64,000 nt of DNA from Giardia intestinalis (taxonomy: Eukaryota), in assembly GCA_000002435.2 (NCBI GenBank), contig CM018789.1, one strand, 5' to 3'. Every line of letters begins with the position of its first letter. Position 1 is the first letter of the stretch. The notes beneath the pieces are model-generated. The model worked only from the letters and a program-made list of their open reading frames with translations, was not told the origin of the DNA and ran no database searches. Made by a program: the position numbers and the translations under genes. Positions 3,665 to 40,408 of the stretch are shown piece by piece.

Positions 3665-6600
3665 CTATGCAGAGGGAATGATGGTGGAGATCGTGCGAAC
3701 TACTGCCTCCTTCTTCTCAGGGGTTACGATAGATGAGCAGTGAGTTGCGTAGTACATGGCTGTACGATTGTTGCTATCACGGAGCTCTGCCTCCAGAGAA
3801 ACAAGACACATCACAGCGTCCAAGGATCCATTGTAGCAGGCGTGCATGAGCGCGGAGCACTGATTGCCGATTGAAATGCCAGTCTTATCCTGGAGACCTC
3901 CCTCAAGAGGCATGAGAAGCCGCACCACTTCAGGTTTGTTGCTGCGTGCGGCGTACATAAGGGCGGTCATTCCATTGTTTGACCTGAGCCTGCTCTCACG
4001 TTTCTTGAGCATATTAACAAAGCAGGTATTGCCTTTGTATGCCGCGTACATAAGCGCAGTCTTGCCATCCTTGTCCTGCAAACCAGATTGAACCTGGAAC
4101 AACGACCAGCCAAGCAGATAGTCGTCGGCTATGATGGCGTCCATTAACTCTGTCCGTCGTCCTCCTGCTGTGCTGAAGCTAGAGACGTCTGCACCCTCTA
4201 GCTTAGTCAGTAACTGCGCCACCTTAAAGTCTTCCCGTTTGAGGGCCAGGTGCAGGGCCAGTTTGCCATCTTTGCGCCGTAAGCCTCCTTCCAATGGAGC
4301 AAGAAGCCTAATCATGTCTTGGTTTCCTTTATTAACTGCCAACATAAGGGCTGTCGTGCCGTCCTTTAGCTGAGCTTTGGCGTATTGCAGAGCACGATGA
4401 GCAGCGTCAATATTATTGACTAGAACGGCCTGCATTAAGGGCGTGTGCTCTGTAGCCTTGCGTTGCGGTGATTGTGTACCATCGATAATTGTACTGGGCT
4501 TACTAAACCTAGGGCTGCTGCTGGGTCCACCGACAAGGTTAGTCTGGTTCTTGATCGTACTTGAACTGCGGCCGGGACCGGTTTGTGACTGGGGCTGTTG
4601 GGCCTGTTCTCTCGTCAATAGCATGACAGCATCCTGTAGCTGGTTCATCTGTCTCTGAAGATGGTCCAACTTAGCAGAAGAAGCCCCCCTGTCTCCAACA
4701 TATGGAGAAATAATAGAGGGAGAGTCGTGTCGCAGCTGCTGATCATTGACTCGGCCAGAGAAGGGACTTGACTGCTCTAACCTTACTTCAACCCTATCCG
4801 CATCTGTCTCCAACTTATGAATCTTTCCTTTTAAGTCCGTTATGTGGCGTCTGAGTGTCTCTATGTCGCTGAAAGCATCTAGAATAGCATGGTATGTGAG
4901 ATCGGTCATTGTTTCCCCGTCACAAACAGCACTCCGCTTCTCTAAAAGTGATACTAATCTTATATTCTCAGACTGGACCTCATCAATCAGGGCCTTTTGA
5001 TCGTCATTTGCCTTCTTAAGGACACCAAGCTCGTGCCTTAGTTCACCCTGATCATTAAGATCGGCTAACAATTGGTCAACCCTGCCAGTTAAAGATGTGC
5101 ACTCGTTATTCAGATCCTCGATTAACTTGTCCTTCTTATGGTGCTCTTCAGCACCTTTAAGAACTTCAGAAAGCTGTTGTAGAAGGTCCTCCCTTTCATT
5201 TCTTAGAAGCACAAGCGCACCTTTGGATTTGTCCAACTCATCCGAAAGAAGCTTGTTCTCGTTGTTGAGCTGCTTGACTTTGTCTGTGTTACGTTGGTTC
5301 TGAGAAGCGAGCTCTGCACAATTGGGACAGTTCCCGGCGTAATCATACGGGTGATCTTCCCAGCCGTCGTCCCCTCGTTGCTTCTGCTTCCCCCGAGCCT
5401 GTGACGGTGATGATTGCTTTGTTGCTTCAAGAATATCGTTCTGCTGCTTTATGCGCGCTTGCAGCACCTGAATTAAAGACTGGTCGTTTTTCTGGACTTG
5501 TTCTGCATGGTCTCTATAAGAGTCGAATTCCTGTTGTAAGCGGTTCAAGTCTGTATCACTAGATAGAGCAGCTGGTTGTTTTGTAGGTGAAGAGTGTCTA
5601 GGGAAGCGTTGGTGCCTGAGTGTATTTTGCAGAGAAACGATGGCTTCATCCTTCTGTTGAATACGGTTGTTTAGCTCTTGTAATTCGCCTCGTAATTGTT
5701 GAATAATTCGCGAAGCTTCGATATTAGCGCTTAGAGCATCATAGTCATTAGCAACAGACATCCCGGCGTGGGATTTGGCCGCATTTTCCTGTGCCTCAGA
5801 AAGAGATGCGCGCAAGAGAGATATTTCGCGAACCAAGCGGGCTATTTCTTCATCTTTTTCGATCATGCGCCCTGCAATATTCCGACTTTCTGCAGCAAAA
5901 GCCTGTACTTGGTCTGAAAGAGACTGGGCGAGATTATTTTCAACAGCCCCGACAAAGTCCATGTGCTTCTGAAAACGCTCCTGGGCTAAGGTGTATTCTG
6001 CCAACAATGCGTCATAGTCGGCCCTAGGGACAACATCTGCTAAATATTCGTCTGATTCCTGTTCCATAGGATAGAGAGTCTTAGGCGGAAGGATTGCAGT
6101 GGGAATTTGAACTGGCTGCCCATAAGGAGCATATCCATCAGCAGAAAAGTTGATGTCTTGCTGCGCGCTTCGTGATCTCAGAGGAGACGCAGTTCTGCTG
6201 GTCTGCGCACTACGCACCTCATCGAGCTCGGCGTATAACTGGCTTATCTCTTGATCCTTTTCTTCTAAAAGCTTTTGCGTGCGGTGCTGCCCAGAGACGA
6301 ACAAGTTGATCTGATTGCTTACAGTGTCTGCCAAATTGCGCTCCACGGTCTTCGTGAAATTGACGTGATTCTTGAACTTGTTCTGAGTATCTGCTAGAGT
6401 CGTCTCCAGCTCGTGTATCCTCTGCATCAAAGTGTCTATCTGTTTATTTTTCTGGTCCATGAGCTGATGAAGCTTAGCAGTATCAGAGCTGAACGGCCCC
6501 ACAGGTATCTCAGAAATCGTGCTTATTGTGCTCTCCTCCAACTTCATGTGTTGCCCTGGTCCAGAAGTGGCGGTACTGGAAGTAGAGGTAGGGCCAGTCG

Positions 6601-7957
6601 CCCTCTGCGCTAAGGCTGAATGCTGGGCCTCGGTCCGATCTGTCTTCTCCTGAAGCAAGAGTTGCAAGGAAGCAATTATGTTATCCGGTTGGTAGGCGTC
6701 TTCCCTTCCGTGATAGTGAAACGCAATAATCCCTTTGATATTATCTAGCAGCGCTTCTAAGCGCCTTATATTGTGAGTTTTCTCATCCAGTTTTTCTAAT
6801 AGCTTCAAGTTCTCTGCTCTGTAGGTCTTTATCTCCTCAGCAGACGGGGATACATCCATGTTCGGGGAGACACTCCGCAAATCATCAAAGACCCTAGTGT
6901 CACAAGGAGAAATAAGGGGAGCATAGACCTTTGTGAACTCGCAAAGAGAATAATAAAGTAGTTTGGACTCTCTACTTGCGATGTCAAGTTGGTACTTCTT
7001 TAGCGACCGAAAGATGTGAGATAACACTTGAGATTCTGCGTACAAGGATTCATAGGTCAACGAAGCGGCTCGAACATCTGCAGTGTGTAACAGCAAAGAT
7101 TGAAGACGCTGTATCTCATCGTCTCGGTCTTGCAAAAGTCGTTCCCAGTGGTTGGAAGTCCTTGGCCTAAATTCGGTCTTAGGCGAAGATGAAGCTGACA
7201 TTACATTTAGGCTTACTTCGGGAGCAACTGTTGTGCTATATCTGTCGTATCCATCGGTTGATTCCTTCCGACTTCCTGAGGGAAGGTAGTTGCCACGAAA
7301 GTCAGGCTTACTTGATGATATGGGAATAGGCTCAGATTCTATAGATAGTACAGGGGGAGAGCCTTGGAGGGTAGGAGGTCCAGGACTGTTGAGCTCTGCC
7401 TTCTTGTCACAGCGTACCTCACGCAGAAGGTCGACAAGATCGAACTTCTCGCTCTCTTGCGCAAGAGCACTAAGTCGATTGCGTTCATCATCATCTAGTG
7501 GATTGCTCGATAGCAGAATGTGCAGAATTTCCGCATTGCCAATGGCAATGGCAAAGTCAAAGACAGAATGTCCGTCCGCGTCTTTTCTAAGAGGATATGC
7601 GCCGCTTAGATACTCAACCACATCTTTAGCCTCGTAGCTCACGGCAATCATAAAGACATCCTGGTCATTGGCGCCGATAACATTCTTCTCGAGTGGACCC
7701 AGATATGCGCAAATGGGCAGATGGTCCTGCATGGCTGCGAGCATCATGGCTGTGTGGCCTTCTGAATTTAGCATCCCAGACTCCTTTGGGGCGAGCAGCT
7801 CAACAATCTCTAAACTTCCGCGCTTTGCAGCCAGCATAAGGCCTGTTGTCCCAGTTGAATCAGTCCGCCGAGCACAGCCCTCCATTAGTTTCTTTACTGC
7901 AGGGACGTTCCGTGCAGAAATGGCCTGAATCCAGTCATCAGGCGCATCACTACTCAT
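3665..7957 (-). CDS. Ankyrin-repeat / coiled-coil protein, 1430 aa (Giardia 'protein 21.1'-like architecture)
   Basis: ATG at 7955-7957 (rev-comp). N-terminal ankyrin repeats ('GTTGLMLAAKRGSLEIVELL', 'GHTAMMLAA'), a ~800-aa heptad-rich central region, and C-terminal ankyrin repeats ('GTTALMLAVNKGNQDMIRLL', 'GKTALMYAAYKGN', 'GMTALMYAA'). Confidence 0.85.
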   Translation of the reverse strand: MSSDAPDDWIQAISARNVPAVKKLMEGCARRTDSTGTTGLMLAAKRGSLEIVELLAPKESGMLNSEGHTAMMLAAMQDHLPICAYLGPLEKNVIGANDQDVFMIAVSYEAKDVVEYLSGAYPLRKDADGHSVFDFAIAIGNAEILHILLSSNPLDDDERNRLSALAQESEKFDLVDLLREVRCDKKAELNSPGPPTLQGSPPVLSIESEPIPISSSKPDFRGNYLPSGSRKESTDGYDRYSTTVAPEVSLNVMSASSSPKTEFRPRTSNHWERLLQDRDDEIQRLQSLLLHTADVRAASLTYESLYAESQVLSHIFRSLKKYQLDIASRESKLLYYSLCEFTKVYAPLISPCDTRVFDDLRSVSPNMDVSPSAEEIKTYRAENLKLLEKLDEKTHNIRRLEALLDNIKGIIAFHYHGREDAYQPDNIIASLQLLLQEKTDRTEAQHSALAQRATGPTSTSSTATSGPGQHMKLEESTISTISEIPVGPFSSDTAKLHQLMDQKNKQIDTLMQRIHELETTLADTQNKFKNHVNFTKTVERNLADTVSNQINLFVSGQHRTQKLLEEKDQEISQLYAELDEVRSAQTSRTASPLRSRSAQQDINFSADGYAPYGQPVQIPTAILPPKTLYPMEQESDEYLADVVPRADYDALLAEYTLAQERFQKHMDFVGAVENNLAQSLSDQVQAFAAESRNIAGRMIEKDEEIARLVREISLLRASLSEAQENAAKSHAGMSVANDYDALSANIEASRIIQQLRGELQELNNRIQQKDEAIVSLQNTLRHQRFPRHSSPTKQPAALSSDTDLNRLQQEFDSYRDHAEQVQKNDQSLIQVLQARIKQQNDILEATKQSSPSQARGKQKQRGDDGWEDHPYDYAGNCPNCAELASQNQRNTDKVKQLNNENKLLSDELDKSKGALVLLRNEREDLLQQLSEVLKGAEEHHKKDKLIEDLNNECTSLTGRVDQLLADLNDQGELRHELGVLKKANDDQKALIDEVQSENIRLVSLLEKRSAVCDGETMTDLTYHAILDAFSDIETLRRHITDLKGKIHKLETDADRVEVRLEQSSPFSGRVNDQQLRHDSPSIISPYVGDRGASSAKLDHLQRQMNQLQDAVMLLTREQAQQPQSQTGPGRSSSTIKNQTNLVGGPSSSPRFSKPSTIIDGTQSPQRKATEHTPLMQAVLVNNIDAAHRALQYAKAQLKDGTTALMLAVNKGNQDMIRLLAPLEGGLRRKDGKLALHLALKREDFKVAQLLTKLEGADVSSFSTAGGRRTELMDAIIADDYLLGWSLFQVQSGLQDKDGKTALMYAAYKGNTCFVNMLKKRESRLRSNNGMTALMYAARSNKPEVVRLLMPLEGGLQDKTGISIGNQCSALMHACYNGSLDAVMCLVSLEAELRDSNNRTAMYYATHCSSIVTPEKKEAVVRTISTIIPSA

Positions 7958-9548: not shown

Positions 9549-9970
9549 ATATATTTGATTCGTAATTACATGACTCGTGTATTATGAGAAGGGCACATTA
9601 ATTGGTCAGTTCATAGCAAGGGACTGCACCAGCTTGCTATCACTGTGGTGAATGAACTTCAAAAAATCACTTTGGTTGGACTGTTTAAACTATGTACCAC
9701 ACGTAGACGATAAACTTACGAGAAAGCTATGCTGCTGCGCCACGTGTGGTACCCAGCCTAGTACCCCGGGGGACGGTGCCCGGGTGCGCCCATCGCCGCC
9801 TGGCCACGGACTGCTCCAGCCACTACAGAGCCAGGCAAGCCAGGCATCTGGCCCTGCTGAGAGCGCGCTCGGCTGTCTCTGCAGGCCTCAGTGGAAGGGA
9901 CACGGGTGCCCGCTGCTTGTCGGCATTCCGGTGCCACCCCGGGGAGCTGCCACAAGGATCGTCTTGACGC

Positions 9971-9985
9971 GTTTACTATCTAAGT
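9971..9985 (-). terminator. VSP-type extended polyadenylation signal (ACTTAGATAGTAAAC)
   Basis: Minus-strand sequence 13 nt downstream of the VSP stop matches the conserved Giardia VSP 3' motif ACTYAGRTAGTRAAY, which contains the general poly(A) signal AGTRAAY. Confidence 0.75.
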
Positions 9986-9997
9986 ACACAGCTAAGT

Positions 9998-12900
9998 CTA
10001 CGCCTTCCCGCGGCAGAGGAACCACCAACACAAGAAGCCAACAAGACCACCTACAACGATGACAGCAGCCACTGCGATACCTGCGATGGCGCCTGTAGAA
10101 AGGCCGCTACTCTTGTTTGTGTTGGGAATCACGCACGCGTCGCCCTGGAGCTGGTAGCCATTACCATCGTCGCACTTGCAGGCCTTCGCCGAGCCGGCAG
10201 CCGGGTCTATTACCTCTTCCGGGGCAGTGCAGGCGGCCTTGCAGCTCTTCTTGTTGGCCGCGACGTATTGCGCTTTATCCTTGCATGTAAGACAGGTTTC
10301 CCCGCCGCTCAAGTCGCACGTCTCGCACCCGGCCCCTTCCAGCGTCGGGCACGCGTTGGCCTGTCCCTTGACGCACGCGTCGCCCTGGAGCTGGTAGCCA
10401 TTACCATCGTCGCACTTGCAGGCCTTCGCCGAGCCGGCAGCCGGGTCTATTACCTCTTCCGGGGCAGTGCAGGCGGCCTTGCAGCTCTTCTTGTTGGCCG
10501 CGACGTATTGCGCTTTATCCTTGCATGTAAGACAGGTTTCCCCGCCGCTCAAGTCGCACGTCTCGCACCCGGCCCCTTCCAGCGTCGGGCACGCGTTGGC
10601 CTGTCCCTTGACGCACGCGTCGCCCTGGAGCTGGTAGCCATTACCATCGTCGCACTTGCAGGCCTTCGCCGAGCCGGCAGCCGGGTCTATTACCTCTTCC
10701 GGGGCAGTGCAGGCGGCCTTGCAGCTCTTCTTGTTGGCCGCGACGTATTGCGCTTTATCCTTGCATGTAAGACAGGTTTCCCCGCCGCTCAAGTCGCACG
10801 TCTCGCACCCGGCCCCTTCCAGCGTCGGGCACGCGTTGGCCTGTCCCTTGACGCACGCGTCGCCCTGGAGCTGGTAGCCATTACCATCGTCGCACTTGCA
10901 GGCCTTCGCCGAGCCGGCAGCCGGGTCTATTACCTCTTCCGGGGCAGTGCAGGCGGCCTTGCAGCTCTTCTTGTTGGCCGCGACGTATTGCGCTTTATCC
11001 TTGCATGTAAGACAGGTTTCCCCGCCGCTCAAGTCGCACGTCTCGCACCCGGCCCCTTCCAGCGTCGGGCACGCGTTGGCCTGTCCCTTGACGCACGCGT
11101 CGCCCTGGAGCTGGTAGCCATTACCATCGTCGCACTTGCAGGCCTTCGCCGAGCCGGCAGCCGGGTCTATTACCTCTTCCGGGGCAGTGCAGGCGGCCTT
11201 GCAGCTCTTCTTGTTGGCCGCGACGTATTGCGCTTTATCCTTGCATGTAAGACAGGTTTCCCCGCCGCTCAAGTCGCACGTCTCGCACCCGGCCCCTTCC
11301 AGCGTCGGGCACGCGTTGGCCTGTCCCTTGACGCACGCGTCGCCCTGGAGCTGGTAGCCATTACCATCGTCGCACTTGCAGGCCTTCGCCGAGCCGGCAG
11401 CCGGGTCTATTACCTCTTCCGGGGCAGTGCAGGCGGCCTTGCAGCTCTTCTTGTTGGCCGCGACGTATTGCGCTTTATCCTTGCATGTAAGACAGGTTTC
11501 CCCGCCGCTCAAGTCGCACGTCTCGCACCCGGCCCCTTCCAGCGTCGGGCACGCGTTGGCCTGTCCCTTGACGCACGCGTCGCCCTGGAGCTGGTAGCCA
11601 TTACCATCGTCGCACTTGCAGGCCTTCGCCGAGCCGGCAGCCGGGTCTATTACCTCTTCCGGGGCAGTGCAGGCGGCCTTGCAGCTCTTCTTGTTGGCCG
11701 CGACGTATTGCGCTTTATCCTTGCATGTAAGACAGGTTTCCCCGCCGCTCAAGTCGCACGTCTCGCACCCGGCCCCTTCCAGCGTCGGGCACGCGTTGGC
11801 CTGTCCCTTGACGCACGCGTCGCCCTGGAGCTGGTAGCCATTACCATCGTCGCACTTGCAGGCCTTCGCCGAGCCGGCAGCCGGGTCTATTACCTCTTCC
11901 GGGGCAGTGCAGGCGGCCTTGCAGCTCTTCTTGTTGGCCGCGACGTATTGCGCTTTATCCTTGCATGTAAGACAGGTTTCCCCGCCGCTCAAGTCGCACG
12001 TCTCGCACCCGGCCCCTTCCAGCGTCGGGCACGCGTTGGCCTGTCCCTTGACGCACGCGTCGCCCTGGAGCTGGTAGCCATTACCATCGTCGCACTTGCA
12101 GGCCTTCGCCGAGCCGGCAGCCGGGTCTATTACCTCTTCCGGGGCAGTGCAGGCGGCCTTGCAGCTCTTCTTGTTGGCCGCGACGTATTGCGCTTTATCC
12201 TTGCATGTAAGACAGGTTTCCCCGCCGCTCAAGTCGCACGTCTCGCACCCGGCCCCTTCCAGCGTCGGGCACGCGTTGGCCTGTCCCTTGACGCACGCGT
12301 CGCCCTGGAGCTGGTAGCCATTACCATCGTCGCACTTGCAGGCCTTCGCCGAGCCGGCAGCCGGGTCTATTACCTCTTCCGGGGCAGTGCAGGCGGCCTT
12401 GCAGCTCTTCTTGTTGGCCGCGACGTATTGCGCTTTATCCTTGCATGTAAGACAGGTTTCCCCGCCGCTCAAGTCGCACGTCTCGCACCCGGCCCCTTCC
12501 AGCGTCGGGCACGCGTTGGCCTGTCCCTTGACGCACGCGTCGCCCTGGAGCTGGTAGCCATTACCATCGTCGCACTTGCAGGCCTTCGCCGAGCCGGCAG
12601 CCGGGTCTATTACCTCTTCCGGGGCAGTGCAGGCGGCCTTGCAGCTCTTCTTGTTGGCCGCGACGTATTGCGCTTTATCCTTGCATGTAAGACAGGTTTC
12701 CCCGCCGCTCAAGTCGCACGTCTCGCACCCGGCCCCTTCCAGCGTCGGGCACGCGTTGGCCTGTCCCTTGACGCACGCGTCGCCCTGGAGCTGGTAGCCA
12801 TTACCATCGTCGCACTTGCAGGCCTTCGCCGAGCCGGCAGCCGGGTCTATTACCTCTTCCGGGGCAGTGCAGGCGGCCTTGCAGCTCTTCTTGTTGGCCG

Positions 12901-15847
12901 CGACGTATTGCGCTTTATCCTTGCATGTAAGACAGGTTTCCCCGCCGCTCAAGTCGCACGTCTCGCACCCGGCCCCTTCCAGCGTCGGGCACGCGTTGGC
13001 CTGTCCCTTGACGCACGCGTCGCCCTGGAGCTGGTAGCCATTACCATCGTCGCACTTGCAGGCCTTCGCCGAGCCGGCAGCCGGGTCTATTACCTCTTCC
13101 GGGGCAGTGCAGGCGGCCTTGCAGCTCTTCTTGTTGGCCGCGACGTATTGCGCTTTATCCTTGCATGTAAGACAGGTTTCCCCGCCGCTCAAGTCGCACG
13201 TCTCGCACCCGGCCCCTTCCAGCGTCGGGCACGCGTTGGCCTGTCCCTTGACGCACGCGTCGCCCTGGAGCTGGTAGCCATTACCATCGTCGCACTTGCA
13301 GGCCTTCGCCGAGCCGGCAGCCGGGTCTATTACCTCTTCCGGGGCAGTGCAGGCGGCCTTGCAGCTCTTCTTGTTGGCCGCGACGTATTGCGCTTTATCC
13401 TTGCATGTAAGACAGGTTTCCCCGCCGCTCAAGTCGCACGTCTCGCACCCGGCCCCTTCCAGCGTCGGGCACGCGTTGGCCTGTCCCTTGACGCACGCGT
13501 CGCCCTGGAGCTGGTAGCCATTACCATCGTCGCACTTGCAGGCCTTCGCCGAGCCGGCAGCCGGGTCTATTACCTCTTCCGGGGCAGTGCAGGCGGCCTT
13601 GCAGCTCTTCTTGTTGGCCGCGACGTATTGCGCTTTATCCTTGCATGTAAGACAGGTTTCCCCGCCGCTCAAGTCGCACGTCTCGCACCCGGCCCCTTCC
13701 AGCGTCGGGCACGCGTTGGCCTGTCCCTTGACGCACGCGTCGCCCTGGAGCTGGTAGCCATTACCATCGTCGCACTTGCAGGCCTTCGCCGAGCCGGCAG
13801 CCGGGTCTATTACCTCTTCCGGGGCAGTGCAGGCGGCCTTGCAGCTCTTCTTGTTGGCCGCGACGTATTGCGCTTTATCCTTGCATGTAAGACAGGTTTC
13901 CCCGCCGCTCAAGTCGCACGTCTCGCACCCGGCCCCTTCCAGCGTCGGGCACGCGTTGGCCTGTCCCTTGACGCACGCGTCGCCCTGGAGCTGGTAGCCA
14001 TTACCATCGTCGCACTTGCAGGCCTTCGCCGAGCCGGCAGCCGGGTCTATTACCTCTTCCGGGGCAGTGCAGGCGGCCTTGCAGCTCTTCTTGTTGGCCG
14101 CGACGTATTGCGCTTTATCCTTGCATGTAAGACAGGTTTCCCCGCCGCTCAAGTCGCACGTCTCGCACCCGGCCCCTTCCAGCGTCGGGCACGCGTTGGC
14201 CTGTCCCTTGACGCACGCGTCGCCCTGGAGCTGGTAGCCATTACCATCGTCGCACTTGCAGGCCTTCGCCGAGCCGGCAGCCGGGTCTATTACCTCTTCC
14301 GGGGCAGTGCAGGCGGCCTTGCAGCTCTTCTTGTTGGCCGCGACGTATTGCGCTTTATCCTTGCATGTAAGACAGGTTTCCCCGCCGCTCAAGTCGCACG
14401 TCTCGCACCCGGCCCCTTCCAGCGTCGGGCACGCGTTGGCCTGTCCCTTGACGCACGCGTCGCCCTGGAGCTGGTAGCCATTACCATCGTCGCACTTGCA
14501 GGCCTTCGCCGAGCCGGCAGCCGGGTCTATTACCTCTTCCGGGGCAGTGCAGGCGGCCTTGCAGCTCTTCTTGTTGGCCGCGACGTATTGCGCTTTATCC
14601 TTGCATGTAAGACAGGTTTCCCCGCCGCCGTCCGCCCCCCCCCCCCGGCCCGGCCTGTCCTGACAGGTCGCCACGGTCCTTCCATCGGCACCACCCGCCG
14701 GCCGGCACCTCTTCCCAGGGCCGGCTCCGGGCCGCGACGTATGCGCCGCTGTGCGCCCCCGCTCAGTCCACGCTTGGACGCACGCGTCGCCCTGGAGCTG
14801 GTAGCCATTACCATCGTCGCACTTGCAGGCCTTCGCCGAGCCGGCAGCCGGGTCTATTACCTCTTCCGGGGCAGTGCAGGCGGCCTTGCAGCTCTTCTTG
14901 TTGGCCGCGACGTATTGCGCTTTATCCTTGCATGTAAGACAGGTTTCCCCGCCGCTCAAGTCGCACGTCTCGCACCCGGCCCCTTCCAGCGTCGGGCACG
15001 CGTTGGCCTGTCCCTTGACGCACGCGTCGCCCTGGAGCTGGTAGCCATTACCATCGTCGCACTTGCAGGCCTTCGCCGAGCCGGCAGCCGGGTCTATTAC
15101 CTCTTCCGGGGCAGTGCAGGCGGCCTTGCAGCTCTTCTTGTTGGCCGCGACGTATTGCGCTTTATCCTTGCATGTAAGACAGGTTTCCCCGCCGCTCAAG
15201 TCGCACGTCTCGCACCCGGCCCCTTCCAGCGTCGGGCACGCGTTGGCCTGTCCCTTGACGCACGCGTCGCCCTGGAGCTGGTAGCCATTACCATCGTCGC
15301 ACTTGCAGGCCTTCGCCGAGCCGGCAGCCGGGTCTATTACCTCTTCCGGGGCAGTGCAGGCGGCCTTGCAGCTCTTCTTGTTGGCCGCGACGTATTGCGC
15401 TTTATCCTTGCATGTAAGACAGGTTTCCCCGCCGCTCAAGTCGCACGTCTCGCACCCGGCCCCTTCCAGCGTCGGGCACGCGTTGGCCTGTCCCTTGACG
15501 CACGCGTCGCCCTGGAGCTGGTAGCCATTACCATCGTCGCACTTGCAGGCCTTCGCCGAGCCGGCAGCCGGGTCTATTACCTCTTCCGGGGCAGTGCAGG
15601 CGGCCTTGCAGCTCTTCTTGTTGGCCGCGACGTATTGCGCTTTATCCTTGCATGTAAGACAGGTTTCCCCGCCGCTCAAGTCGCACGTCTCGCACCCGGC
15701 CCCTTCCAGCGTCGGGCACGCGTTGGCCTGTCCCTTGACGCACGCGTCGCCCTGGAGCTGGTAGCCATTACCATCGTCGCACTGCGCGGTCTTCTCGTTG
15801 TGCTTTGCCAGCACTGTTACACAAACTAGGAGAAATCCTACCAACAT
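9998..15847 (-). CDS. vsp: Variant-specific surface protein (VSP) with ~23 tandem 80-aa cysteine-rich repeats, ~1949 aa
   Basis: C-terminus '...[31 protein letters not shown]' (TM helix plus invariant CRGKA tail). Body rich in CXXC (CETC, CLTC). Signal peptide '[14 protein letters not shown]'. The track ORF begins at GTG 15868; first ATG is 7 codons in (15847). VSP poly(A) motif follows the stop. Confidence 0.92.
10131..15783. repeat. 240-bp tandem repeat array (~23 units) inside the VSP coding region
   Basis: Identical 73-aa antisense ORFs recur every 240 bp from 10176 to 14256 and 14823 to 15543, so units appear 100% identical. Unit encodes '[80 protein letters not shown]'. Confidence 0.95.
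14629..14776. repeat. Aberrant repeat unit: ~148-bp GC-rich segment with a poly-C tract replacing 61 bp of the canonical unit (net +87 bp, in frame)
   Basis: After 'ggtttccccgccgc' the unit diverges into 'cgtccgcccccccccccggcccggcctgtcctgacagg...' and rejoins at 'gacgcacgcgtcgccctggag'. It encodes the G/R/A-rich '[52 protein letters not shown]' and lacks the Cys pattern. Confidence 0.8.
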
Positions 15848-37852: not shown

Positions 37853-40408
37853 TCATAGCATCTTCTCTGTTAGAATTCGATGTAGCTCGGCGGATAGCTC
37901 ATCGGGTAGGGCTACTGGAGATGAAAGCAGTTCGAGCAGCAAGACATGGAATTCGGCAGAAAGGCCGGATGTCACAAGAGCCTGAACAATATCAATGCAG
38001 CTATAACAGGTGCTTATCAGAGCGCGGCGGAAAACTCTAAGTGCAGAAGCATCTTCATGCTCCTTTGCAAAGAGAGAAGTATGATCAAGCTTTGTCTCCA
38101 TTAGAGACTGCCGTAGAAATGTGGAAATGGCACCGCAGAGTTGACCATCAAAACGTCCATTGTAAATTGCTGCTCGCAGTAACAGCAAGCTATTGTTAAT
38201 TATATATGATCTAGATGCCAATCTATTAGCAAATTTTTGGAGCTTAGTTTTCCATTTCAGCCCAGCAAAGGACCGTGCCTGGTTCGGGTCGTCCACGTGC
38301 CTTGCAGTGAGACCTGACCGTAAGGACAGTTCTTCTTCTATAAGCAAGCTGAGAGCTGTTAGGACAAACGGGTGTACCATACTGTTTGAAAACAAAGCTA
38401 ATGAAATGCAATGGAAGAGAATGGGCCGTGATGAGCAAAACGTAATAACGATACCGTTGTTGATCATATAGTAGTGTCTATGTAGCAATGAACCCAATAG
38501 CACCATAAGCAACCCAATGGATCTTTGGGTGGGCTCGACCAGAAAGTTATTTGTGATAGACTCCAAGTTTCCAAGGTGCTGACTAGAAAGTGTAAAGTAA
38601 ATATTATCCGGAGAGAGATTGGGATTGGTGCCCAAGTTCAACCGCGGAAGGACAGTAGAAAATATGTAGGTAGAGCATGTCAAAATATTGCAATATATTC
38701 GAGTGTCAATAGCCGAGATTGTCATCCGCAAGGATAAAGATTGTACCGGGTGTTGGCAACCAGTTCTAATAAAGCTGGCAACAAAAGAATCGATCTCATC
38801 AGACAAGATGGAGTACAATAGAAAAAGGCACGCTGGAGAATCGAGGATCAGAGTCTCTCCCACGCCAGTCAGACAGTTATCACATAGAAACAAGTTGTAT
38901 AGTTCTGTGATATGTAACTCGAGTAGCTCTACCAATGCCAGCTTGGTTTTGCCCTGCCATTCGGCACAGTCACTGTACTGGACATCAAGCAGAGAACAGA
39001 TCAACTGCGACGCTATATGCGTATGCTTCCTGATGGCCAGGTCCAGCAAGTGTTGATCAACAAGTGGCGCATGCATCTTGAGATTGCCTAGGAGGTGCTG
39101 CTGATTAAGTAAGTTTGTGCCTGGAGGAAATGCGTGATAATATGCTATTCGGATGGGATCTGATATGAACTTATCTTTAAGTGTCAGGCGTGACTCTGAT
39201 GACTCTTCTATGGCCAAATCATTGGGGGTAAGACGCCACGATGAGCTTAAGATAATATCAAGACCGCGTCTTCGGAGCATGCAGAGCTCCTCCTTCTGGT
39301 ACACTCGCTGGCCTTTGATGGAGCTTGTGTCTGTCATTGGGACTGCGTGCTCGTTGTAAGTGGGAATTCTAGACTGTCCAAAGTTATAGCATGACAGTGA
39401 CGTGATTTGATGAAGATGGTATCCCGTTCTGTTATAGTTTGTGACAGGTGCAGAGGCCGTAGGGTTTGGCACTGCCACACTAACGCAGGTGTGTATGTCG
39501 GGTAGAATATTACAAGCGTAAGAGGCGCCCTTGAGAATAGCAGGGTCTTCATCCCTGAGAGCTGCCAGGGCGGACAAAGGTCTGTTCCCCGACTGGCTAT
39601 CTTGTTCCTCTTCCTTCTCCGGTACAGCTGCTTCATGTAGGTCTGCTGCTATCTCTTCTACATTCAATTTAATATCCGGTTCCTTAAGAGGTCCCACTGA
39701 CTCTTTTCCCTTTTTAGTCTTCGCAAGCTTGGCCTGTCGTCGTTTTTGTGCCACTCTTGGGTCTTCCTCCTCTTCGCGGTCTTCTTGCTCCTCTTGCTCT
39801 TCCTGCTCCTCGATTGGGGATGGTACATCTGCAGTGTTGTCTACCTCATCGAGAAAGTCAAGTGATGCTAGCGAGCGGTCAACTCCAATGTATGGACGAA
39901 GAAATGCGCCTTGCCAAGCAGCGTAGACGAGATAAATGATACGGTTAGACACTGTGTGCGACTTGCTGAGATATACTTGCTCATAGATAAGAACGTATCG
40001 TATGTAGGTGTCTATAAAGGCATTAATGAAACTGGAATTAGTTAAAAGCTCCACATTGTCCCATTTCAGAATGGTAAACAGGTCGGCAAGATTCTTCCGA
40101 GGAGTGACTGGTAGGACGCAAACGTGCTCTAAAACACCTTTAAGTGCGTCATCGTTGAACAGAACGCTGAAGATACCCCCAAGTTGAACTGCAGCATGGA
40201 AGATGGCATAAATGTCGGCGTAATTACCGCCAAGAATGGGCCAATCACTGGTATAAACACCAAGTAAGCTGAAGTTCAGACGAAATAGGTCAGAATAGAA
40301 CTTGGCCTTAGCAGCAGACTGGTCACCGCCTAAACTTTCAGACGCTATTTTCCAAACTGTGGAGGATGCACATCTGTGGCCTTGGAGACTTGTAAAAAGT
40401 TGTTGCAT
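37853..40408 (-). CDS. Hypothetical protein, 851 aa; possible N-terminal ARID/BRIGHT-like domain and acidic E/Q tract
   Basis: N-terminal 'FYSDLFRLNFSLLG...PILGGNYADIYAIFHAAVQLGGIFSV' resembles the ARID helix pattern ('LDLYxLYxxVxxxGGxxxV'). It also has 'EEQEEQEEQEDREEEEDPR'. ATG is 7 bp from the divergent neighbour's ATG. Confidence 0.65.
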   Translation of the reverse strand: MQQLFTSLQGHRCASSTVWKIASESLGGDQSAAKAKFYSDLFRLNFSLLGVYTSDWPILGGNYADIYAIFHAAVQLGGIFSVLFNDDALKGVLEHVCVLPVTPRKNLADLFTILKWDNVELLTNSSFINAFIDTYIRYVLIYEQVYLSKSHTVSNRIIYLVYAAWQGAFLRPYIGVDRSLASLDFLDEVDNTADVPSPIEEQEEQEEQEDREEEEDPRVAQKRRQAKLAKTKKGKESVGPLKEPDIKLNVEEIAADLHEAAVPEKEEEQDSQSGNRPLSALAALRDEDPAILKGASYACNILPDIHTCVSVAVPNPTASAPVTNYNRTGYHLHQITSLSCYNFGQSRIPTYNEHAVPMTDTSSIKGQRVYQKEELCMLRRRGLDIILSSSWRLTPNDLAIEESSESRLTLKDKFISDPIRIAYYHAFPPGTNLLNQQHLLGNLKMHAPLVDQHLLDLAIRKHTHIASQLICSLLDVQYSDCAEWQGKTKLALVELLELHITELYNLFLCDNCLTGVGETLILDSPACLFLLYSILSDEIDSFVASFIRTGCQHPVQSLSLRMTISAIDTRIYCNILTCSTYIFSTVLPRLNLGTNPNLSPDNIYFTLSSQHLGNLESITNNFLVEPTQRSIGLLMVLLGSLLHRHYYMINNGIVITFCSSRPILFHCISLALFSNSMVHPFVLTALSLLIEEELSLRSGLTARHVDDPNQARSFAGLKWKTKLQKFANRLASRSYIINNSLLLLRAAIYNGRFDGQLCGAISTFLRQSLMETKLDHTSLFAKEHEDASALRVFRRALISTCYSCIDIVQALVTSGLSAEFHVLLLELLSSPVALPDELSAELHRILTEKML

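Follow-up and report, generated by a model that had tools for sequence, protein, structure and literature searches.

An aberrant stretch in the perfect repeat array of a Giardia intestinalis variant-specific surface protein gene is very probably a scar of long-read consensus polishing

Two genes for variant-specific surface proteins (VSPs) of Giardia intestinalis WB are built on tandem repeats: vspA6/CRP170, with a 195-bp unit, and vspC5, with a 105-bp unit. In both, the encoded protein starts with a short leader and ends in a conserved transmembrane-CRGKA tail, and almost all of its ectodomain consists of identical repeats, which number more than 20. The repeat copy number varies between alleles in WB vspA6 and vspC5 (PMC2996952), and structural variants within isolates have been found to be enriched at VSP loci (PMC7048089). 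With regard to assembly, the HGAP/Quiver assembly of H. pylori PMSS1 contained "imperfectly assembled copies" of the copy-number-variable cagA repeat (PMC5358919).

The gene GL50803_0050391 resembles vspA6 and vspC5 in its leader, in its array of more than 20 identical repeats, and in its tail, and its unit is 240 bp (80 amino acids) long. It is missing from the 2007 assembly, for which no TR240 vsp is listed. Allelic variation in repeat number is documented for vspA6 and vspC5, whereas for GL50803_0050391 we infer it; such variation would yield mixed reads. The array of this gene is broken by a single 148-bp stretch, which is comparable to the errors of the HGAP/Quiver class in tandem repeats. 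The method was alike (HGAP3, Quiver, and PBJelly), and here too the site is within a perfect tandem array, with a sequence that mixes two versions of different length. Unlike the H. pylori cagA case, the putative Giardia scar is internal, short, and in frame, and it passed annotation into a RefSeq protein.

The window, by which we mean the whole 64-kb stretch of DNA that was analyzed, is G. intestinalis WB-C6 sequence from the 2020 PacBio reference AACB03. The cathepsin B and ankyrin proteins adjoining the VSP gene are identical to WB-C6 entries, and no tRNAs were found in the 64 kb. The features of the locus are as follows.

9967..9986, minus strand: conserved VSP 3' motif TACTTAGATAGTAAACGCGT, with the AGTAAA polyadenylation signal inside it, read from the sequence
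9998..15847, minus strand: VSP gene GL50803_0050391 / XP_037901615.1, translated as 1949 amino acids and a stop codon
10131..14628, minus strand: canonical 240-bp (80-amino-acid) array, 18.7 copies with 100% identity, making up the 3' part as the gene is read (Tandem Repeats Finder)
14629..14776, minus strand: aberrant 148-bp stretch, judged from subsequence tests and a toy polisher to be very probably a consensus-polishing artifact
14635..14646, plus strand: C12 homopolymer in the aberrant stretch, the only homopolymer of at least 9 in the window
14777..15783, minus strand: canonical 240-bp array, 4.2 copies with 100% identity, making up the 5' part as the gene is read (Tandem Repeats Finder)

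The host gene at 9998 to 15847 is a Giardia VSP gene, which is a known kind of gene. Its product consists of a signal peptide, about 23 repeats of 80 amino acids, a transmembrane helix, and a CRGKA tail, and a C terminus in which a transmembrane helix is followed by the CRGKA pentapeptide is the ending by which VSPs are recognized. The whole protein matches the Pfam VSP family (PF03302) at 69.7 bits, against a cut-off of 31.4. Each canonical 80-amino-acid unit contains 10 cysteines, CETC and CLTC among them, and over the entire protein these two motifs occur 22 and 23 times, respectively. At the 5' end of the gene, an Inr (TAATGTT) is located at the ATG (15849 to 15843); at the 3' end, TACTTAGATAGTAAACGCGT starts 12 nt past the stop. 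The assignment of the signal peptide is taken from bioRxiv 10.1101/2022.03.07.483299, where it is tabulated. The supplement of the same work gives the same 3' motif at 15 to 34 from the stop codon, places GL50803_0050391 / XP_037901615.1 on NC_051856.1 with 5850 nt and 1949 amino acids, and contains an identical sequence, the aberrant peptide included (bioRxiv 10.1101/2022.03.07.483299).

The original prediction had described a single aberrant, GC-rich unit in an otherwise perfect array, with about 148 bp replacing 61 bp. Tandem Repeats Finder, which reported 100% matches and 0% indels for both array blocks, and a base-by-base check bear this description out and fix its boundaries: the last canonical base is 14628, the first canonical base thereafter is 14777, and the phase of the unit has moved by 61 bp. 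The 148 bp at 14629 to 14776 stand for 61 canonical bp, giving a net gain of 87 bp, or 29 codons. The G+C content of the stretch, which includes the sequence CCGCCCCCCCCCCCCGGCCCGGCCTGTCC, is 77.7%, compared with 64 to 65% for the canonical unit. The predicted poly-C homopolymer is also present, as a C12 run at 14635 to 14646; after it, the longest run of C or G in the 64-kb window is 6. The 87 extra bases are strongly biased toward C and G (C, 48; G, 25; T, 8; A, 6), and relative to 301 canonical bp, the retention of bases is 0.66 for C and 0.30 for T. There are no inverted repeats within 14500 to 14900.

Parts of the stretch had been said to look like scrambled pieces of the canonical unit. 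This reading was not borne out and was dropped, since the k-mers common to the stretch and the unit are strictly collinear and follow the order of the canonical repeat (stretch position 15 to unit offset 19, 23 to 49, 78 to 143, 101 to 187, and 130 to 236). The whole stretch is in fact a perfect subsequence of the canonical 301 bp (61 + 240), with an LCS of 148/148, and its edit distance to that sequence is therefore equal to the difference in length. Compared with the 301 bp, the stretch has at least 47 deletion blocks, 0 substitutions, and 0 insertions. When 20,000 composition-preserving shuffles were compared with the same 301 bp, the LCS averaged 134.2 ± 1.7 and reached a maximum of 142. 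Among 23,062 real 148-bp windows taken from both strands of the rest of the 64 kb, the maximum was 138, and it was 136 for those with a GC content of at least 0.68.

The relation also holds in the opposite direction, as the canonical 61 bp are fully contained as a subsequence in the stretch (LCS, 61/61). Containment of these 61 bp was seen in 0 of 20,000 shuffles of the stretch, and its frequency in random 148-nt subsequences of the 301 bp was between 0.0001 (base-specific retention) and 0.0011 (uniform retention). The two properties are found jointly in 12 of the 240 registers, which lie from -10 to +1 about the true register. Confined in this way to the true register, the two-way subsequence relation places the stretch exactly between an array of n units and one of n+1 units, as an intermediate specific to that register. 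We found no paper describing this exact two-way signature, which was derived in the present analysis.

A sequencing or assembly artifact at a G/C homopolymer had been offered as one explanation of the unit. The internal structure of the stretch strongly supports the first part of that proposal, an artifact, but not the homopolymer as its cause: the C12 homopolymer is a product of the artifact. Against a null of composition-matched random subsequences, we found no homopolymer enrichment beyond composition (adjacent identical bases, 0.347 versus 0.323 ± 0.036; p = 0.26). Cheap homopolymer "merge" moves are thus unsupported as the source of the extra bases.

Translation confirmed that the VSP frame is kept and that the CXXC pattern is lost in the aberrant unit. 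The minus-strand frame is open across the stretch, and 52 residues are altered (QAWTERGR...GGGADGGG). These residues include 8 Arg, 14 Gly, 4 Pro, 1 Trp, 1 His, and 2 Cys; Arg, Trp, and His are absent from the canonical unit. Eight of the 10 cysteines are lost, both CXXC motifs are gone, and a Pfam search of the altered peptide gave no match. The altered peptide resembles the product of GC-rich DNA translated in the wrong frame more than it does a selected linker. Of the three frames on the minus strand, two stay open through the stretch. In a model that drew deletions alone at random, with base retention as observed, 33% of outcomes were in frame, 50% had no stop inside the stretch, and 18% were both in frame and open over the whole ORF. 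The length change that had been noted as a multiple of 3 is exact, at 29 codons, but given these chance frequencies (33% in frame; 18% in frame and open), it carries little weight. The argument that the unit is in frame and hence selected was rejected because an in-frame, open ORF arises by chance at a frequency of 0.18. As a separate observation, the open, in-frame ORF and the acceptance of the gene by annotators count against an artifact.

The WB-C6 reference was built with HGAP3 and Quiver, after which contigs that overlapped were stitched, gaps were filled from PacBio reads by PBJelly, and Quiver was run for 2 more rounds (PMC7000408). Illumina pile-up correction was then limited to sites with at least 10 mapped reads and at least 50% support (PMC7000408). 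The pipeline therefore combined iterative consensus polishing of noisy long reads with a short-read correction that depends on mapping.

The behavior of such polishing was examined with a toy polisher, a toy model and not Quiver, which uses a weighted edit-distance likelihood and makes edits at least 10 nt apart in up to 40 iterations. Its input was 24 simulated PacBio-like reads anchored in 100-bp flanks. When the real stretch was polished with homogeneous long reads, the exact 301 bp were recovered in 18 iterations; with homogeneous short reads, the exact 61 bp were recovered in 13. A start from the short version with long reads likewise ended in the exact long version. With 13 to 16 long reads among the 24, all 8 runs of a first set stopped at 79 to 285 nt, each of them sandwiched both ways. 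In a second set with mixed reads, 15 of 16 runs were intermediate in length, and 14 of these 15 were sandwiched both ways. Pooled, 23 of the 24 mixed-read runs were intermediate (79 to 285 nt), and 22 of the 23 were subsequence-sandwiched as the real stretch is. In this model, then, mixed reads give such intermediates and homogeneous reads do not. Neither the C12 run nor the strong bias toward C and G among the 87 extra bases emerges from the toy polisher.

On the strength of this internal structure, the stretch is almost certainly an artifact of one kind or another, and it is very probably an HGAP/Quiver consensus artifact, formed by a compromise between n and n+1 units, and not genomic DNA. 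Evidence inside the perfect 240-bp array would have disagreed by exactly one unit at 14629 to 14776, and long-read consensus calling (HGAP/Quiver, possibly PBJelly) would have left a scar at that disagreement. The shorter version (61 bp at this site, 23.2 units in the whole array) would have been kept base for base in the consensus, and of the 240 bases in the extra unit of the longer version (301 bp, 24.2 units), 87 would have been put in. These bases would have been added in order and with no substitution, and the outcome would be neither version of the array. A polisher that works one base at a time probably settles on an intermediate when the reads mix both lengths, and under an error model in which indels are far cheaper than substitutions, such a sandwich would be the product of a consensus caller that makes single-base edits.

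Two origins of the mixture are conceivable. Cells of the culture, or the four copies of the genome, may differ in having 23.2 or 24.2 units; alternatively, the aligner may have put a one-unit gap at the site for some reads only. We give somewhat less than an even chance to the possibility that the scar, although artifactual, marks a true difference (23 versus 24 units) between cells of the clone or between the four genome copies. Illumina correction presumably could not mend the scar: true short reads fit canonical units and would not map on it, so that pile-up correction would leave it in place. The true locus would hold canonical units only, and its protein would have 1920 or 2000 amino acids, not 1949.

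Comparisons with databases and other isolates were also made. An exact look-up of the 1949-amino-acid product returned no record. The aberrant peptide had no match in a collection of 5.8 billion proteins; this absence carries no weight because the collection also lacks the canonical unit, for which the best identity was 76%. In the JGI metagenomes, a 22-mer of the canonical unit gave 0 matches, and the search hence has no power for the aberrant stretch. Short-read (Logan) contigs of WB, reached via cathepsin B, all end 213 to 450 bp past cathepsin B, before or at the 3' end of the VSP gene, and so carry no information on the array. The syntenic VSP gene of the DH isolate has a different, 225-bp unit and so is not informative on the aberrant unit of WB. 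Literature searches on GL50803_0050391 and on the 2024 comparison of Be-2 and WB-C6 found the locus mentioned nowhere.

A different artifact, involving no disagreement in unit number, would be a piece of long-read sequence, raw or at low coverage, that escaped polishing: a gap filled by PBJelly, for example, the end of a stitched contig, or a burst of deletions in one read. The pipeline did contain both stitching of contig overlaps and gap filling with raw reads by PBJelly (PMC7000408). The stretch also differs from the 301 canonical bp by deletions only, and the bias in retained bases (0.66 for C and 0.30 for T) could mean a channel-specific dropout. However, about 51% of the bases would need to be missing, and the raw-read error rate of PacBio is far below that value. 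Random dropout from the 301 bp keeps the whole 61 bp in only 1e-4 to 1e-3 of trials, and homogeneous spanning reads mend the stretch in 13 to 18 toy iterations; three Quiver rounds were run. We therefore regard an unpolished patch as unlikely. Foreign or paralogous GC-rich DNA, inserted or gene converted from another locus, would account for a GC content of 78% against 64% for the unit and for the fact that standard BLAST matches the stretch to the canonical unit over 18 nt only. Yet no donor was found in the rest of the 64-kb window or at the syntenic DH locus (best E value, 0.65 or worse), and an unrelated sequence is not expected to be a perfect, register-specific subsequence, as 0 of the 23,062 real windows were. 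Of all the explanations considered here, this one is the least probable.

Genuine degenerate repeat units carry mostly substitutions, and their protein homology is still recognizable. The stretch is like the genuine degenerate units of surface antigens in being one deviant unit with the frame kept; unlike them, it is deletion-only, with 0 substitutions, and encodes a peptide that bears no relation to the unit. Substitutions, protein similarity, and retained Cys and CXXC, the marks of a genuinely diverged unit, are all absent from it. A real degenerate unit, created by recombination, slippage, or error-prone repair and tolerated or selected because it is in frame, would agree with the 29-codon length change and the open ORF, and both recombination and changes in copy number do occur in VSP repeat arrays (PMC2996952). 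Such a unit would nevertheless need at least 47 independent microdeletions with 0 substitutions in 301 bp, next to some 5,500 bp of sister units without any change, and the exact two-way subsequence relation would have no biological rationale. The loss of 8 of 10 Cys and of both CXXC motifs from 52 residues that have no Pfam match also speaks against it, and the open, in-frame outcome arises in 18% of random cases. A real unit is consequently very improbable. The removal of about half of a unit's bases in at least 47 pieces, free of substitutions, is expected of no biological process. Less credible still is a real 148-bp unit rewritten in one event, in which repair or replication would have passed over roughly half of the template bases, in order and with no misincorporation; if true, the rewritten unit would be an in-frame, cysteine-poor linker inside a VSP.

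If the stretch is a compromise between two array lengths, as we consider very probable, the importance of the finding lies chiefly in data quality; the stretch itself holds no new biology, and the reference is worth correcting. The reference protein XP_037901615.1 / GL50803_0050391 very probably carries about 49 residues that do not exist. These residues would skew the Cys and CXXC statistics of GL50803_0050391, which have already been tabulated in a survey of the VSP family (bioRxiv 10.1101/2022.03.07.483299), and the stated repeat number of the gene is uncertain by one unit. The two-way subsequence test offers a simple, read-free way to spot polishing scars of this kind in other long-read tandem arrays. 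If the scar reflects truly mixed reads, this would suggest that the number of repeats is heterogeneous at a third VSP locus of WB, after vspA6 and vspC5.

XP_001706456.1 is a small WB VSP (148-185 aa) that carries one copy of the module, and this copy is 76% identical to the 80-aa unit encoded at window 10131-15783 (minus strand) in the giant VSP gene, GL50803_0050391. Following its module, the C-terminal stretch of the small protein, through CRGKA, is identical to that of GL50803_0050391. Single-module relatives were also found in other isolates (proteins P0003, P0004, and P0005). GL50803_0050391 looks like a mini-VSP ectodomain that has been amplified. At its other end, the leader of GL50803_0050391 is identical to that of GL50803_0041626, a repeat-bearing WB VSP of 1088 aa whose repeat, KCNTPNCRDCTNPKAENEACTGCDPAYVLSGSQCVER, is not the same as that of GL50803_0050391.

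Features considered in this part
Window 3665-7957: ankyrin repeat protein, 1430 aa
Window 10268-15829, plus strand: ORF of 1853 aa, antisense to the entire array, including the aberrant stretch
Window 15803-15847, minus strand: signal peptide of GL50803_0050391 (leader, 15 residues)
Window 39762-39811: imperfect short tandem repeat, 18-bp unit, 2.5 copies, 84% matches
L007:6001-6690 (AHGT01000036.1): VSP of isolate DH, beside cathepsin B, syntenic to window 9998-15847

The antisense ORF does not count as evidence for a gene; it is a shadow ORF that arises from the repetitive, GC-rich array sequence. The 18-bp repeat, elsewhere in the window, falls within an ORF at 37853-40408 (minus strand).

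The annotated protein of the giant gene, XP_037901615.1, was not found in a collection of 15 billion proteins. All Logan short-read contigs with an identical cathepsin B gene (L001 to L006) stop 213 to 450 bp past that gene, with ends corresponding to window 9760-9996, at or just short of the VSP stop codon. The conserved VSP 3' end or the repeat is the break point of short-read assemblies. In one of these contigs (L002:1804-6094, run SRR13990249), the ankyrin repeat protein was called as three ORFs (917, 188, and 327 aa) and the adjoining AAA protein was split as well (485 and 182 aa), which suggests frameshifts or poorer assembly quality in that run.

In DH, an assemblage A2 isolate of Giardia, the syntenic VSP gives a partial protein of 229 aa and contains 2.2 copies of a 225-bp unit, which differs from the WB repeat at the same position. 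This unit contains SSSKKVRPDKKGCIASCPPSVTTENSGVCECT and is similar to the repeat of another WB VSP, of 1921 aa, in a published table. The repeat module at the cathepsin B-adjacent VSP locus appears to have been swapped between lineages.
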